From a virus (Duplodnaviria; Heunggongvirae; Uroviricota; Caudoviricetes): a stretch of 21,248 bases of DNA. Location: the IMG/VR virus record IMGVR_UViG_2563366853_000009, positions 1 to 21,248 of that record; one strand, written 5' to 3'. The translations under genes were made by a program, and so were the position numbers. The stretch's first letter is position 1, and every line of letters starts with the position of its first letter. This document shows, piece by piece, positions 577-20,835 of this stretch. The notes below the pieces were generated by a model. That model did no database searches. It had not been told where the DNA came from and saw only the letters and a list, made by a program, of their open reading frames with translations.

Positions 577-849
577 ATGAGTGATTTATTACTAATTAAA
601 AACTGGTTAATTGACCATCATGCACTATCGATTTTCTTTGGGTTTTTATCGGCTGGGTTATGGATCAAATCAGCAACAGCCAAAGTCAAAACAGGTAGAA
701 GCACCGTTGTAGCAATTACATTTGATGATCCCAAAAAAAATGTAGATCTTCACGAATTTTTCTTAACTGCGCGGTTACAGTCTAAATATAACTCATATGC
801 AGCTTTCGCTGCTGCTGTAACTGTGATTTTGCAAATGGCTGGCTATTAG
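577..849 (+). CDS. Hypothetical small hydrophobic protein, oriented opposite to the late operon (bor-like position)
   Basis: ATG at 577 in frame with track ORF 532..849; hydrophobic stretch ALSIFFGFLSAGLWI; AT-rich; weak RBS. Confidence 0.3.
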   Translation: MSDLLLIKNWLIDHHALSIFFGFLSAGLWIKSATAKVKTGRSTVVAITFDDPKKNVDLHEFFLTARLQSKYNSYAAFAAAVTVILQMAGY

Positions 850-2569: not shown

Positions 2570-2911
2570 TTACTCCTTCGATCTACCAAATTTGTTACCG
2601 ATTACTCGCATTGCAGCCCCACGAATAGCATCGACACCGATCAGCCCCACGCCACCACCAATGGCAACAGAAAGCGATTTAGGCCATCCGACATACTCAA
2701 GAGCGGATGCAAAGGTCAGCGTCAGAGCGCCACATAGCAAAATCTCGAGCGTTTTTCGCTTCCAGCCACCACCACCGCCAAAATAGGCGATGCGCAAACC
2801 AGCCATAACGATCGACATAATCACTGCGCCCAGCGGTGTGTCTCCACGCCACCAACTTTGTAAGAGTTCCAGTAAGTCAGGCCAGGAATGAGGGACATTG
2901 TGCATTTTCAT
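2570..2911 (-). CDS. S: Class I holin, lambda S-like, with dual-start motif (Met-Lys-Met)
   Basis: ATG-AAA-ATG at 2911-2903 preceded by GGAGGTG; in-frame GTG further upstream at 2920; C-terminus similar to lambda S. Confidence 0.8.
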   Translation of the reverse strand: MKMHNVPHSWPDLLELLQSWWRGDTPLGAVIMSIVMAGLRIAYFGGGGGWKRKTLEILLCGALTLTFASALEYVGWPKSLSVAIGGGVGLIGVDAIRGAAMRVIGNKFGRSKE

Positions 2912-3009
2912 AAGCCTCACCTCCGAAAGTTCGGATGGTGCTAAATGTAAGATTCAGGCTCTCTGGCTTGCTCACAAGAAGTCGAGGATGTTTCCGGAGC
3001 CTAACAACG

Positions 3010-3034
3010 AAAAAGCCCCGGGACATGCCAGGGC
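3010..3034 (-). terminator. Rho-independent terminator-like hairpin about 100 nt upstream of holin
   Basis: Minus-strand GCCCUGG-CAUGUCC-CGGGGC (one G-U) followed by UUUUUCGUUGUU. Confidence 0.45.
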
Positions 3035-3128
3035 CAGATGGAGTACCAGATTAAGCTTCTGGCGGTATATCCTCGTGTTTGATATCGTTAAATCGCCAAA
3101 AGTAACCATATCAATTAAAGGAGTATAT

Positions 3129-3407
3129 ATGGCTAGTTTTACTGTCCGCGTTGAGCTTGTGGGTGCATCATCCGATGACTACGCTCGCCTTCATGAGGCG
3201 ATGGAATCCCGAAGATACTTTCGCGAAATTCAAGATGGAGCAGGAAACTGGTTTTATCTTCCAGACGCTGAGTACACAGCCGAAAAAAACGCATCTGCTC
3301 GCGCAGTCCGAGAAGAAGTTGTAGCCATCGCTGGGACAATAAAAAAGAACCCTCGGGTGCTAGTCACTCAAGCGGCAGATCGCTCATGGCATTTAATCAA
3401 GAAGTGA
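3129..3407 (+). CDS. Hypothetical small protein (92 aa), cargo gene opposite to late transcription
   Basis: ATG at 3129 with AAAGGAG RBS; MASFTVRVELVGASSDDYARLHEAMESRRYF...; no confident family assignment. Confidence 0.5.
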   Translation: MASFTVRVELVGASSDDYARLHEAMESRRYFREIQDGAGNWFYLPDAEYTAEKNASARAVREEVVAIAGTIKKNPRVLVTQAADRSWHLIKK

Positions 3408-3623
3408 GTTTTGATCGCCATTAACGGGTATTCCGTTCCCGCTACGCCCCTCACCAACCTCAGGGGCGCTTTCATAGCGCTCCATCGCAATAAACGCGGC
3501 AGCGATGCAATGCCCCAAATTTTCAAAATCATCCACCCCCGGGTTAGCCCGAGCCACAATGAACTGACCCAGTGTGATTTTGGCCTGAGATCGGGAATCA
3601 GAAGATAATTCATAAAATTTCAT
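3393..3623 (-). CDS. Hypothetical small protein (76 aa), convergent and 3'-overlapping with 3129..3407
   Basis: ATG at 3623 with GGAG 7 nt upstream; terminator hairpin immediately upstream. Confidence 0.35.
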   Translation of the reverse strand: MKFYELSSDSRSQAKITLGQFIVARANPGVDDFENLGHCIAAAFIAMERYESAPEVGEGRSGNGIPVNGDQNSLLD

Positions 3624-3635
3624 GGGTGTTCTCCA

Positions 3636-3665
3636 GAAACAACAAAACCCGCTCAATGGCGGGTT
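3636..3665 (-). terminator. Rho-independent terminator downstream of ORF6N gene
   Basis: Minus-strand AACCCGC-CAUUGA-GCGGGUU followed by UUGUUGUUUC. Confidence 0.45.
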
Positions 3666-3760
3666 CTGGTAAAGTTCATGCGCTTGATTCGCCTCGCGAT
3701 ACAGCTTTGCGAAGCGTACTGGAATTGAAGCAGTTTATGGCTAAAATTGCAAGAACTTTT

Positions 3761-4372
3761 TTAAAGCTGCATCAGCCTTTCCACCAGTTTATCTCTGCGA
3801 ACAACAAACCAACCATTGGCTCTCGCCAGTTCCAGCCATGACTCAAGGGAAATAACAATATCATCATCCCGCAACTGAATTGTGGAAACAGTGACACCGC
3901 CTTGCTGATAACAGAGAACTCGCGTGTCGTAACTTTTCTGGCATGAAACTGGCGCTGACGGATCCTTTTGTCTGAAATAGCAGTCTTCCAGTCTTTCGAA
4001 CACATCCCACGCCTGATCGGTTTCGAGCATTTTGGCATGACGGGCTGCTCCGCGTTCTGTCCAGAGTATGAGGGAGCGGGCTTTCGGGGAAATTTGTAAC
4101 CCTCTTAAAGATGGTTGCAAATTTTGTGAGTTACTTAAAGTAACCCGCAAATTTTGTGAGTAGTTTAAAGCTACCCGCAATTCTTTAAGGTCATTACCAA
4201 CAACTTTGAAAAAGTGTTTCCCTTCAACGAAGCGTACTTTGTTCTCATGATGATTCTGGCGAATACGCACCGGCTCAGTGCCGTAAAGCTGCGCCAAAAG
4301 TTCGGTGGTAATAACAGGAATCTGGTTATGGGTGATCGGGGAGAGAGTTTCAACAGAAATTTGAGTTGTCAT
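3761..4372 (-). CDS. ORF6N/KilA-N-like (antirepressor-type) domain protein with internal tandem repeat
   Basis: 203 aa; N-terminal region matches the ORF6N pattern as recalled (RF-EG-HFFK...SPKARSLILWTERGAARHAKML); repeat inserted within the domain. Confidence 0.6.
   Translation of the reverse strand: MTTQISVETLSPITHNQIPVITTELLAQLYGTEPVRIRQNHHENKVRFVEGKHFFKVVGNDLKELRVALNYSQNLRVTLSNSQNLQPSLRGLQISPKARSLILWTERGAARHAKMLETDQAWDVFERLEDCYFRQKDPSAPVSCQKSYDTRVLCYQQGGVTVSTIQLRDDDIVISLESWLELARANGWFVVRRDKLVERLMQL
4093..4180. repeat. Tandem ~30-bp repeat inside the ORF6N gene, each unit with an internal palindrome
   Basis: Two full units AAATTTTGTGAGTNNNTTAAAGNNACCCGCA plus a partial; encodes LRVALNYSQN/LRVTLSNSQN. 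Confidence 0.7.
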
Positions 4373-4530
4373 AATGACGCCCTCTGGTGGTTTCTTAATA
4401 ACTCACCACCGACGACGCCAATCGTCTGGTGGTGAACTGTGCAGGGTTGGCGTAACCGGGAAACCGACCGGCGCGGATCTCTCCGCCCCCACACAGCCCA
4501 CCATAATTCAGATGTGCGCGTGCATACGAC

Positions 4531-4555
4531 AATAAAAAACACGCTCGCGGCGTGT
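4531..4555 (-). terminator. tR'-like terminator about 90 nt downstream of Q
   Basis: Minus-strand ACACGC-CGCGA-GCGUGU followed by UUUUUUAUU. Confidence 0.45.
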
Positions 4556-4616
4556 ATCTGTCGCGGTCTCTATCCAGGACGCCAATCCCGACGCCAGATT
4601 TTGCTGGCGCGTGAGG

Positions 4617-4646
4617 AATATAGCCCCGGATAACAGATTGAGTCAA
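4617..4646 (-). promoter_or_regulatory. Candidate late promoter (pR'-like) overlapping Q stop codon
   Basis: Minus-strand TTGACT, about 18-nt spacer, TATATT; -35 overlaps the Q TGA. Confidence 0.35.
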
Positions 4647-5197
4647 CAGACGGTTTTTAGATCCCCGGAAGAGAATGCATCACGCATCGGCAGATAGAGC
4701 ATAAACTCTGCCATTTTCAACCACGCATCTATGCGATTACGGCACGTGGCGTAACACCACTCAGGGTGTGAATCATTCAGCAATTCAGCCATTTTTCGCT
4801 TAGTCATCCCCCGCCCTTCATATCGTTGCCGGAGGATACAAATCAATCCTGGGTGTTCTGCCAGCACTTCACTAATCACCCGATCAATGCATAACGCCTC
4901 TGCATCAGTACAATGCACCAGCCAGCTTTTTTGCTTGCCGTTGATCATATCCCGCAAAAAAGCCTCAAGTTCAGGTTTGTCCAGACCTGCTTTTTTCATC
5001 CTCCGGAGCGCCTCGTTAATTGCCGTTTTTGTCAGCTTTTTAGAGGTCAGCAACTGGTTGAACATATTTCCCGTCTTACCGCCGCCAATATACGACCAGC
5101 GCCCCCACATGCGCAGTTTTCCCTGAATCCAGACACTTTCCAGCGTGGTGAGACGAAGGTGTTCCCCGCTTTTGCCTGTATTTGTTGGGTAAATCAT
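4643..5197 (-). CDS. Q-like late-gene antiterminator
   Basis: 184 aa from ATG at 5197 overlapping upstream stop (ATGA); LRMWGRWS motif resembles LERWGAWA of QuuD-type Q proteins as recalled; followed by promoter and terminator. Confidence 0.55.
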   Translation of the reverse strand: MIYPTNTGKSGEHLRLTTLESVWIQGKLRMWGRWSYIGGGKTGNMFNQLLTSKKLTKTAINEALRRMKKAGLDKPELEAFLRDMINGKQKSWLVHCTDAEALCIDRVISEVLAEHPGLICILRQRYEGRGMTKRKMAELLNDSHPEWCYATCRNRIDAWLKMAEFMLYLPMRDAFSSGDLKTVC

Positions 5198-5484
5198 AAA
5201 TAACCTTCCTTTCTCCAGATTTCTTGCGTACGAAAAACACCTTCTGCATGCATCAGGCGTAATTCTTCTTTGGTGTAATCGCTGGTTTTTAGCCGCCCGT
5301 CGATTAAATCGTGGCATGAGCTGCAGGCAATCGCTGCCTGCATATCGTGTGGTTTTGTCGCTGTTCCGCACGTCCCCGCCAGCCTGTAATGCGCCAGCAC
5401 AGAAGTTTCGGGATTGTGATTGCAGTAGCCAGGAATTCTGACGGTGCACATCTGCCCCCGCGCCGCTTTACGTAAATCCACCAT
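5194..5484 (-). CDS. YbcO-like DUF1364 protein (Cys-rich putative nuclease)
   Basis: 96 aa; close match to recalled DLP12 YbcO (MADLRKAARG-C-VRIPG-CN-NPETSVLAH ... CSSCHD). Confidence 0.75.
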   Translation of the reverse strand: MVDLRKAARGQMCTVRIPGYCNHNPETSVLAHYRLAGTCGTATKPHDMQAAIACSSCHDLIDGRLKTSDYTKEELRLMHAEGVFRTQEIWRKEGYL

Positions 5485-6083
5485 TACGCAAACTCCAGTA
5501 ACTGCGCGGCCACATTTTCGACTTCCTCCGGAGAGGAAAATTTACGGAACAGGATCCAGTTCCACAGCACATTCAGTACAGATTTATAAACCTGCTGAAA
5601 CACGGTTTCGTCCATGTTCGCAAATGCGATAGATTTTGCCCTGCGCCCACGACTACCATCAGGATAAATATGCTCGGTGTAAAATCCGGCCTGAATGGTT
5701 ACCCACTCGCGGAAAGCGTCAAACGACTTTAGCAATGCCGTATCCCGGGTTCTGCATGTCGCAACTGTATTAAGGTATTGCTCTGCGGCATCACTCAGGG
5801 CTGGAGTGTGTTCCCGACCTACTGATTCGCACAGGTAATCAACGAAGCCTGATACCAGTTTTCGTTCGCGAGGCGTGATCGCCCCACCGACCGGAGTCCA
5901 GTAATCGAATCCCAGTTGCAGGAGTTTGAAAAAACGCTTGTGGAATGCGTAGTTACGCACACGCTTAAAGTCTGCGTGTATCCACTCACCTATTTTGATT
6001 TGATGCAAAAAATCGCAACTCTCCGGCGTCGCCGGGAGAAGTAATCCGGAAGAGGTTTGTTTGACCAGTTGTATATGTGCCAT
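5484..6083 (-). CDS. Nin-region hypothetical protein (possibly DUF1367)
   Basis: 199-aa ORF whose stop overlaps the ybcO-like start by 1 nt; family assignment from memory only. Confidence 0.5.
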   Translation of the reverse strand: MAHIQLVKQTSSGLLLPATPESCDFLHQIKIGEWIHADFKRVRNYAFHKRFFKLLQLGFDYWTPVGGAITPRERKLVSGFVDYLCESVGREHTPALSDAAEQYLNTVATCRTRDTALLKSFDAFREWVTIQAGFYTEHIYPDGSRGRRAKSIAFANMDETVFQQVYKSVLNVLWNWILFRKFSSPEEVENVAAQLLEFA

Positions 6084-6654: not shown

Positions 6655-6810
6655 TTACTCCTCAGGTTCGTAAGCTGTGAAGACAGAGACCTCCGTCTGG
6701 CCGGTTCGGATTCGTACCTCGCAGAGGTCTTTCCTCGTTACCAGTGCCGTCACTATGACGGTTAAACAGATGACGATCAGGGCGATTAACATCGCCTTTT
6801 GCTGCTTCAT
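6655..6810 (-). CDS. hok: Hok/Gef-family type I toxin
   Basis: 51 aa MKQQKAMLIALIVICLTVIVTALVTRKDLCEVRIRTGQTEV... matches Hok family (single TM, conserved C-E-x-R); in-frame upstream extension to 6867. Confidence 0.85.
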   Translation of the reverse strand: MKQQKAMLIALIVICLTVIVTALVTRKDLCEVRIRTGQTEVSVFTAYEPEE

Positions 6811-7062
6811 AGCCTGCTTCTCCTTGCCTTTCGGCACGTAAGAGGCTAACCTACGTTTGTATAGCATAGATTGGGCCTCAGATTAATGTTAAGCGTCTTG
6901 CCGGACGCGTAATGTTAACTGGGGCTTTTCTCTATCTGCCTTTGGTGTTCATGCCTGAGGCAGATAGCCTCAAGCACCCGCTGTCATTCTACTTAAGTTA
7001 GGTAAGATTTTCTATGGTATTTCTCCACGTTCCATAAATACGAACGTGTATTATCATTTTTA

Positions 7063-18707: not shown

Positions 18708-18902
18708 ATGAGATATGACGATGTTAAACCATGTCCGTTTTGTGGTTGTCCATCAGTAACGGTGAAAGCCATTTCAGGATATTACCGCGCAAAGTGTAAC
18801 GGATGCGAATCCCGAACCGGCTATAGTGGAAGTGAAAAAGAAGCACTCGAAAGATGGAATAAACGAACTACTGGAAATAATAATGGAGGTGTTCATGTAT
18901 AA
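18708..18902 (+). CDS. ralR: RalR (Lar) restriction-alleviation protein / type I toxin
   Basis: 64 aa MRYDDVKPCPFCGCPSVTVKAISGYYRAKCNGCESRTGY...; alternative start at 18696. Confidence 0.8.
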   Translation: MRYDDVKPCPFCGCPSVTVKAISGYYRAKCNGCESRTGYSGSEKEALERWNKRTTGNNNGGVHV

Positions 18903-19044
18903 AATTACTGCCACTATTGAAAAGGAAGGTGGCACTCCTACTAACTGGACAAGATATTCAAAATCTAAATTAACGAAATCAGAATGCGAAAAAAAATGCT
19001 CTCAGGGAAAAAAGAAGCAGGCGTTTCCAGAGAGCAGAAAGTAA
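18895..19044 (+). CDS. ydaC: YdaC-like small protein
   Basis: ATG at 18895 with GGAGGTG RBS; MYKITATIEKEGGTPTNWTRY...; overlaps ralR end. Confidence 0.5.
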   Translation: MYKITATIEKEGGTPTNWTRYSKSKLTKSECEKKCSQGKKKQAFPESRK

Positions 19045-19140
19045 AGCTGATAAATTTTAATTGCGAGAAACTTCTGTCCTCGTGAGTTGCATTATATACA
19101 AATTAGAACTTCATAGCTGATTATTAAAAATCAACCACAT

Positions 19141-20611: not shown

Positions 20612-20646
20612 AAAACGTTTGCAACTGATTGATTTTAAATACAATT

Positions 20647-20749
20647 AAAAAAAGACCGAATACGATTCCTGTATTCGGTCCAGGGAAATGGCTCTTGGGA
20701 GAGAGCCGTGCGCTAAAAGTTGGCATTAATGCAGGCTTAGTTGCCTTGC
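20647..20749 (-). ncRNA. sdsR: SdsR (RyeB) small RNA with its intrinsic terminator
   Basis: Minus-strand GCAAGGCAACUAAGCCUGCAUUAAUGCC...GACCGAAUACAGGAAUCGUAUUCGGUC-U7 matches recalled SdsR; CTATTCT sigmaS-type -10 just upstream. Confidence 0.6.
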
Positions 20750-20835
20750 TCTTTAAGAATAGATGACGACGCCAGGTTTTCCAGTTTGCGTGCAAAATGG
20801 TCAATAAAAAGCGTGGTGGTCATCAGCTTAAATGT

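Follow-up and report, generated by a model that had tools for sequence, protein, structure and literature searches.

IMG/VR record IMGVR_UViG_2563366853_000009 (21,248 nucleotides (nt), all of which were analyzed and are referred to as the window herein) is a lambdoid prophage of Escherichia coli. In its late region, two small genes on opposite strands, encoding proteins of 92 and 76 amino acids (aa) that we call p92 and p76, converge and overlap at their 3′ ends. We found that both are real genes under purifying selection, that p92 belongs to the YmfI family and is remotely related to GhoS, the antitoxin ribonuclease (RNase) of the GhoS/GhoT system, and that the pair recurs in diverged phages. 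What is new here is that the GhoS/Cas2-fold superfamily and the YmfI family meet in an uncharacterized convergent architecture in which partners are swapped. We tentatively favor the reading, to which we give a probability of roughly 0.4, that p92 and p76 form a mobile, insulated accessory ("moron") cassette that acts as an antisense-coupled lysogen-to-lytic switch with a GhoS-like, RNA-targeting p92.

The gene pair and its coding status

The two genes and the elements that frame them are as follows.

3129-3407, plus strand: p92, ATG at 3129, TGA at 3407, 92 aa
3393-3623, minus strand: p76, ATG at 3623, stop at 3393, 76 aa
3393-3407, both strands: 3′-end overlap of 15 nt, coding for the variable C-terminal tails of p92 and p76
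3117-3123, plus strand: Shine-Dalgarno of p92 (AAAGGAG), ending 5 nt before the ATG at 3129, read from the sequence
3631-3634, minus strand: Shine-Dalgarno of p76 (GGAG), 7 nt before the ATG at 3623, likewise read
3668..3643, minus strand: terminator T1, stem of 10 bp (6 of them GC), located 19 nt ahead of the p76 start and just past the ORF6N gene
3035..3014, minus strand: terminator T2, stem of 8 bp (6 of them GC) followed by a T-rich tail, past the region of the p92 promoter and ahead of holin S
3076-3116, plus strand: type A leader of p92, conserved and non-coding
3080-3088, plus strand: candidate extended -10 promoter TG-a-TATCGT, proposed by motif match

Over the 901 bases around the pair, the window matches the chromosomes of E. 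coli R1 and of two further strains with 100% identity, and in the identical R1 prophage the NCBI pipeline calls exactly p92 and p76 as coding sequences. The first-pass annotation of the window had drawn both open reading frames (ORFs) at these same coordinates, with the 15-nt overlap, with late-strand terminator hairpins on both sides, and with a strong ribosome-binding site on a plus-strand gene that runs against late transcription, and all of these features were borne out.

Because ORFs in other frames are abundant here, coding status was checked directly. When p92 and p76 were compared with four overlapping alternative ORFs, only the p92 and p76 frames had homologs beyond near-identical loci, with the exception of two alternative ORFs inside p92 that persist in L028 and L029 (83% identical). 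For pairs with informative divergence, dN/dS values calculated by the Nei-Gojobori method were 0.13-0.40 for the p76 core and ∼0.10 for p92. Both are real genes under purifying selection. The N termini of p92 (MASFTVRVEL) and p76 (MKFxEL) are also conserved, which confirms both start codons. A plus-strand ORF of 65 aa and a minus-strand ORF of 81 aa were considered as the coding frame of 3408-3623 and rejected, since they are conserved solely in near-identical loci. Three protein records depart from these gene models. Of the two public ones, P0002 (159 aa) results from p92 being read past its stop into the frame antisense to p76, and P0029 is p76 with a frameshift. In P0154 (499 aa), a p92-like domain (residues 407-499) follows weak integrase-like matches, which could reflect a fusion or a gene-calling artifact.

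p92 is a YmfI-family protein with remote kinship to GhoS

The first-pass annotation could place neither protein in a family. In our searches p92 found a place in the YmfI family and the GhoS superfamily, while p76 fell only into PHROG 26625, which has no functional annotation. p92 matched PHROG 8894 over its full length (E = 3e-38), the same PHROG as YmfI of E. coli K-12 (E = 8.6e-40). Residues 1-89 also matched the NCBIfam model NF051477, "YmfI family phage protein", at E = 4.8e-16, with 59 bits against an equivalog cut-off of 140. Judged by sequence, p92 is thus a YmfI-family member in the broad sense and not an equivalog. The family is large, as a profile search of 1.84 billion representatives returned 2,388 clusters at E ≤0.001 and 1,464 at E ≤1e-10. 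Nearly all of its members are stand-alone proteins of ∼92-100 aa, and matches to genomes came from Enterobacterales, Alphaproteobacteria, Acidobacteriota, Binataceae, Longimicrobium, and Bacteroidota.

Among 123 p92 relatives, nine positions are conserved: R7 (in 123), E9 (108), Y18 (121), H22 (118), M25 (123), P45 (121), E48 (118), Y49 (122), and W87 (111). Of these, R7, E9, Y18, H22, M25, E48, and Y49 make up a near-invariant set. All nine residues are present in the window p92. The Pfam GhoS profile PF11080, whose gathering score is 21 bits, was matched at E ≤0.01 by 45 of the 123 relatives (best E = 3.3e-7). One of the relatives, the Serratia homolog P0007, is 71% identical to p92, scored 22.1 bits, above the Pfam threshold, and carries the name GhoS at NCBI. 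Structure comparison, which the first-pass annotation had suggested for both proteins, showed that p92 has a GhoS/Cas2-like ferredoxin fold with GhoS as its best match; for p76 no structural relative emerged. A Foldseek search of viral structures (BFVD) with p92 returned nothing at E ≤0.001. Taken together, the relationship between p92 and GhoS is remote but real, and holds at the superfamily level only.

The hhalign and Pfam registers agree on a uniform offset of +6, such that E9, H22, and M25 of p92 correspond to D15, R28, and M31 of GhoS. R28 is the residue that matters most for the RNase activity of GhoS (PMC4010927); in the p92 family its position is filled by the near-invariant His22. 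D15 and M31 are among four residues that were repeatedly replaced in toxic GhoS variants (PMC4010927). Substitution of M31, alone or with L25I, makes GhoS toxic, and M31L and L25I turn it into a toxic RNase of broader specificity (PMC4010927). By extension from this relative, p92 is most likely a putative small RNA-binding or RNA-cleaving protein.

p76 is a small acidic protein

An alignment-based search yielded 117 relatives of p76, and all those with a named source are from Enterobacterales (Escherichia, Citrobacter, Enterobacter, Klebsiella, Kluyvera, Serratia, Yersinia, Xenorhabdus, Photorhabdus, and Salmonella). None of the 117 has a Pfam domain or a meaningful name, and no structural or sequence relative was found outside this family. 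The AF2 model of p76 consists of a two-helix hairpin (helices 8-24 and 33-52) followed by an acidic, disordered tail. The protein is acidic (isoelectric point (pI) 4.6) and soluble, with no membrane-spanning segment (maximum KD19 of 0.85 versus 2.60 for GhoT) and no similarity to GhoT. The p76 of L003 and that of the window part ways in their C-terminal tails near codon 71, the point at which the p92 gene of the window ends.

Terminators and a conserved leader recur around the pair

The elements that frame the window pair were also seen in diverged relatives. Five diverged lambdoid loci have a terminator on the late strand 19-23 nt upstream of where p76 starts, each with its own hairpin sequence. 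In L039, the terminator equivalent to T1 is the 3′ end of a match to the small RNA (sRNA) isrJ (4493-4564, minus strand), 20 nt before the p76 homolog. T1 of the window (3643-3668) was not recognized as an isrJ match, and it may close an isrJ-analogous sRNA. On the other side of the pair, at least 9 of 20 diverged loci have an opposite-strand terminator 80-130 nt upstream of the p92-like start, again with differing hairpin sequences. Against a background of 0.042 terminators per 100 nt per strand, this gives a binomial P of ∼5e-10 for loci that are not fully independent. Downstream of p92, the scan of the window found no plus-strand terminator.

The leader at 3076-3116 is ∼90% conserved in L006, L009, and L039, although the p92 proteins there are only 43-49% identical, and in L002 and L003 the same leader stands in front of another plus-strand gene. 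TTGATAT(N)GT, common to all leader types, is a plausible extended -10 element (TG-n-TATNGT) located 31-44 nt before the ATG. In the window, the candidate promoter stretch ahead of p92 (3036-3128) includes TGATATCGT.

Leaders of the YmfI family (in the window, in L004 at 5430-5497, and in L031, L036, L037, L040, L041, and L043) show higher conservation than the coding sequence, and about three types can be told apart. One type contains the inverted repeat TTGATAT/ATATCAA, another has two copies of the direct repeat TTCCACAGTCAA flanking TTGATAT, and the e14-type leader carries ccacNtcaggcNNggtgg. Rfam searches with the conserved leaders gave nothing at the gathering threshold or at E ≤1, and RNAalifold found almost no covariation, so these leaders are probably promoter or operator elements that act at the DNA level. 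The window leader alone folds with z = -2.3, a value on which we do not rely. A minus-strand ORF of 45 aa (2972-3109) extends over the T2 hairpin and the leader and contains one moderately hydrophobic stretch (KD19 of 1.66); it is probably spurious, since this stretch coincides with the hairpin sequence.

The pair recurs in several genomic contexts

In our set of p92-anchored loci, an opposite-strand gene of the p76 family was found in 22 of 41, with 3′ overlaps of 4-18 nt. The p76-anchored search added three convergent loci, L053-L055. In these, p76 shares 65-82% identity with that of the window, and the YmfI-like protein opposite it shares only 34% with p92; of the three overlaps, only that of L054 was read, and it is 4 nt. 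In the window and in L006, L009, L028, L032, L039, and L054, the pair lies between Q and the lysis genes. In L005 it is found inside a myovirus tail operon, with the assembly chaperone gene on one side and the tape measure gene on the other; in L043 it follows the lysis genes and precedes a minor tail gene; and in L036 and L037 a CI-like repressor is encoded a few genes upstream of it. Since the convergent, overlapping pair recurs in diverged phages and in at least four genomic contexts, it moves as a unit, and this co-mobility argues for a functional unit. Among 5,426 complete E. coli genomes, p92 was present in 18 and p76 in 23, and all 18 p92-positive genomes also carried p76. One further locus, L035, has a homolog of the YmfJ N terminus facing a p92-type protein with a 4-nt overlap.

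A putative lysogen-to-lytic switch

In the reading that we favor, the leader of p92 would drive its transcription in the direction opposite to the late operon, probably via the extended -10 promoter, so that p92 could be made in the lysogen. With its start only 19 nt behind T1, p76 would instead depend mainly on read-through by Q-modified polymerase during lytic growth. The 3′ overlap, the lack of a plus-strand terminator after p92, and the position of T2 beyond the p92 promoter suggest that each transcript would be antisense to the other gene. Expression could then be excludon-like and mutually exclusive, flipping from p92 to p76 on induction. A narrower idea, that p92 is a specific guard against holin mRNA, was rejected because the pair is also found in tail operons and near CI-like repressor genes.

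A close counterpart is the ymfI/ymfJ pair of the e14 prophage in E. coli K-12 (b1143/b1144). There, ymfI is likewise antisense to the phage operon and converges on a small operon-strand gene, and p92 shares this layout of the YmfI family. The two loci differ in that ymfI (plus strand) and ymfJ (minus strand) overlap by 63 nt at their 3′ ends, compared with 15 nt in the window, and in that the e14 pair adjoins a CI-like repressor, whereas the window pair lies between Q and the holin gene. The partners are unrelated as well, as homology between p76 and YmfJ was ruled out (hmmsearch E = 0.12; hhalign probability 0.1%). A genome-wide list derived from RNA-seq includes ymfI/ymfJ as a convergent excludon (PMC12288877), and in the late SOS response ymfJ shows strong induction and ymfI a much smaller rise (PMC11002266). 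In the literature on ymfI/ymfJ and GhoS-like proteins we found gene lists only and no functional study.

Evidence against the switch and alternative explanations

Several observations weigh against the switch cassette. The expression scheme at the window locus is deduced from sequence, with RNA data coming only from the e14 homolog, and the p92 candidate promoter, a motif match only, was not flagged by the standard sigma-70 scan. As for the kinship with GhoS, the window p92 itself had no match to PF11080 at E ≤0.1. Alignment of the p92 family to GhoS by hhalign fell in the same register as Pfam with E = 0.001, but with a probability of only ∼20%. Because a search of PDB sequences with the p92-family profile did not retrieve GhoS, the link rests on the sub-threshold Pfam hits and the fold, and RNase activity of p92 is therefore an extrapolation from a remote relative.

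The coupling of the two genes can be questioned as well. Geometry alone is a weak sign of it, since a lone antisense gene in a dense phage operon necessarily converges. In 5 of the 23 p76-positive E. coli genomes p92 is missing, and p76 stands alone in L056 and beside a different cassette in L003 and L052. Conversely, relatives of p92 have unrelated small partners in L008, L038, L040, and L041 and no partner in L031, L034, and L042. Across locus pairs, the identities of p92 and p76 hardly correlate (Spearman 0.15). For instance, the window and L028 share 83% identity in p92 and 43% in p76, while L005 and L043 share 54% and 84%, respectively. Such discordance suggests recombination between the p92 and p76 genes rather than tight co-evolution. 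The two-component module that the first-pass annotation had considered plausible is sustained in part: a linked pair exists in at least four phage contexts, yet either gene can be found without its counterpart, and the two diverge discordantly.

These same observations are what an account based on independent genes would predict. Here, p92 and p76 would be accessory genes at a common cargo hot spot, with p92 an antisense moron that repeatedly inserts at the 3′ ends of small genes, p76 a small late- or early-operon gene, and their link one of neighborhood only. Besides the separate occurrence and discordant identities of the two genes, this account would explain why p92-type partners comprise at least two unrelated families (p76 and YmfJ) plus several singletons, why the same site holds a different cassette in other phages, and why the neighbors of environmental relatives are very diverse. 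We consider it somewhat unlikely, since p76-family and p92-family genes occur together in at least four unrelated contexts and the pair is kept across p92 subtypes that are 34-100% identical, a pattern that is difficult to account for unless the two genes move together or their adjacency is selected.

Further clues come from distant relatives. Outside Enterobacterales and in metagenomes, the p92-like gene usually lacks a convergent small ORF. Its commonest immediate neighbor is an upstream DndB/DpdB-like gene on the same strand, found in 8 of ∼70 loci with a callable upstream gene. Also adjacent are genes for a trypsin-like peptidase, a CBASS-type cyclase, and PDC-M48B, a metallo-beta-lactamase-fold protein that PADLOC lists as a candidate. 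The p92 family thus occupies defense-island neighborhoods, which does not by itself define a system. The DndB/DpdB-like neighbor was seen in L013, L014, L017, and eight metagenome loci, with the p92-like gene often 1-40 nt downstream; L010 and L012 have an AAA_16 ATPase in its place. A DndB-like gene followed by a GhoS/YmfI-like gene may represent an undescribed defense-island gene pair.

This setting bears on a toxin-inhibitor explanation, which casts p92 as a toxic endoribonuclease of the GhoS type, for example an abortive-infection or exclusion effector, and p76 as an antidote or anti-RNase supplied when the phage is lytic. The conversion of GhoS into a growth-inhibiting RNase by substitutions at L25 and M31 (PMC4010927) makes such a role conceivable, and p92 retains an enzyme-like set of invariant residues. 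The acidity and disordered tail of p76 are also compatible with an inhibitor, its copies without p92 would fit orphan antitoxins, and the distant p92 relatives lie in defense islands beside DndB/DpdB-like, CBASS cyclase, and PDC-M48B genes. We nonetheless regard this explanation as improbable. Relatives of p92 commonly have no small convergent partner (L031, L034, L042, and most of the ∼80 environmental loci), the two proteins co-diverge weakly, and neither p92 nor p76 matched PADLOC-DB v2 at E ≤1. Type II toxin-antitoxin systems are also a poor template, as the window genes are convergent and not co-transcribed, occur separately, and show the low Spearman value given above. The first-pass annotation had proposed a toxin-antitoxin or a defense/anti-defense module. 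The former idea gains from the remote kinship of p92 to GhoS and loses from the lack of an evident toxin, p76 being soluble with no GhoT-like segment, while the PADLOC result speaks against the latter. Each of the two roles stands as a hypothesis only.

A bolder proposal extends the toxin-inhibitor explanation to the whole YmfI/GhoS-like family, with its at least 2,388 clusters and invariant R-E-H-E-Y residues. Its members would be a hitherto unrecognized class of small RNA-targeting defense effectors, present as antisense morons in prophages and in defense islands, often right after a DndB-like gene, and in enterobacterial phages the convergent partner, such as p76 or YmfJ, would be the phage's own antidote, switched at lytic entry. 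Lytic entry alone would turn the antidote on, with the effector silenced by antisense transcription. We hold this to be a long shot; if true, it would constitute a convergent effector/self-immunity switch unlike every described toxin-antitoxin type.

Lastly, a type V-like system, with p92 as a GhoS-like antitoxin RNase that cleaves the mRNA of a toxic p76, is very improbable: the remote homology and best structural match of p92 to GhoS, the adjacent small gene, and complementary 3′ ends that could target the RNase would suit it, but p76 has neither a hydrophobic segment (maximum KD19 well under that of GhoT) nor GhoT similarity and is present without p92 in viable lysogens, the genes are convergent with no ghoS-ghoT-like operon, and partner families are interchangeable.

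Comparison with known systems

GhoS/GhoT (E. coli yjdK/yjdO; PF11080; PDB 2LLZ) differs from the window pair in organization, partner, and setting. Its genes form a ghoS-ghoT operon, in contrast to the convergent, overlapping genes of the window, and it is a chromosomal stress locus, whereas the p92 family is found in phages and defense islands. The GhoT toxin is a two-helix membrane protein, and no such partner lies near p92: between 2921 and 3760 we found no GhoT-like hydrophobic ORF, the highest KD19 being the 1.66 of the probably spurious 45-aa ORF, compared with 2.60 for GhoT. With p92 below the Pfam threshold, the key Arg28 replaced by His, and no GhoT partner, the window pair is not a GhoST-family member. 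By analogy, p92 may still work like a GhoS-type RNase. Cas2 resembles p92 in its ferredoxin fold, yet there is no sequence similarity and no cas1 gene or CRISPR array nearby.

In its genomic position, the pair resembles the Gifsy-1 isrK-orf45-anrP-isrJ island and the lambdoid Q-to-S morons, which occupy the same slot. Like those morons, the window cargo is flanked by terminators and swapped between related phages. The classical morons bor, lom, and stx are described as single genes or co-directional operons; the window cassette, unlike them, consists of two convergent, overlapping genes and has a conserved leader of its own. With excludons it shares convergent units, a 3′ overlap, and terminators placed such that each transcript could cover the other gene, a likeness known in the window from sequence geometry, whereas overlapping transcription is reported only for the e14 homolog.

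To our knowledge, GhoS is the only characterized type V antitoxin, and it is usually seen as a rare oddity. Our results tie it, remotely, to a very large family that sits in lysogenic-conversion slots and defense islands, and this link offers a testable handle on the function of the family. The YmfI/p92 family is large, shows enzyme-like conservation, is unstudied, and can be tested in K-12, where ymfI/ymfJ of e14 provides a tractable laboratory counterpart; the function of p92 itself is predicted from sequence. The layout of terminator, small gene, overlapping antisense GhoS-like gene, leader, and second terminator is conserved in the relatives examined. It is a candidate for how prophages insulate a lysogen-expressed gene within a lytic operon and silence it on induction. 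If p92 is an RNase with a phage-supplied antidote, this would be a new architecture for toxin-antitoxin and defense biology. If it is not, two "hypothetical proteins" and YmfI of K-12 still gain a correct annotation.

The surrounding prophage

The late operon of the window is on the minus strand, and the pair sits between the Q/isrK/antirepressor region and holin S, with the following neighbors in late-operon order.

4643-5197, minus strand: Q (DUF1133/antiterminator Q-like protein), first in the late-operon order
4646..4617, minus strand: sigma-70-like promoter directly downstream of Q
4571-4623: a1/b1 targets of C4 RNA, Rfam match
4534-4610: isrK, Rfam match
4425-4508: C4 antisense RNA, Rfam match
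3761-4372, minus strand: ORF6N antirepressor-like gene, directly upstream of the pair
2570-2920, minus strand: holin S, followed by endolysin, Rz/Rz1, and the small terminase subunit

The island at 3761-4646 resembles the Gifsy-1 isrK-anrP island joined with a P1-type C4/ant control region. The Q-to-S slot is a known cargo site, and related E. coli phages and prophages hold a different insert within the same flanks. In L002 and L003, the alternative cargo is another convergent, overlapping pair, with a 3′ overlap of 32 nt. In L002 it comprises an unannotated, Pro/Gln-rich ORF of ∼52 aa (2733-2891, plus strand; PHROG 14506) behind the same leader as p92 and a 189-aa protein with a hydrophobic segment (2860-3429, minus strand; PHROG 11870), which one phage record names "putative membrane protein".

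Elsewhere in the window, a hok/sok type I toxin-antitoxin locus is indicated by an Rfam match to sok (6805-6979) and a Hok-like ORF (6655-6867, minus strand). Counted from its first ATG, this ORF has 70 aa; within it, the annotation of the identical R1 prophage places a Hok/Gef coding sequence of 51 aa. Toward the far end of the window, Rfam also matched RalA, the antitoxin sRNA of RalR, and the SdsR/RyeB and SraC/RyeA pair, at 18901-19081 and 20643-20787. A further small antisense gene (577-849, plus strand; PHROG 14357, annotated as hypothetical) is located between the lysis cassette and the gene of the small terminase subunit, and nearby, at 1166-1573, is a late-strand gene of 135 aa with no assigned function (minus strand; PHROG 585). 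Both of these genes may be further morons.

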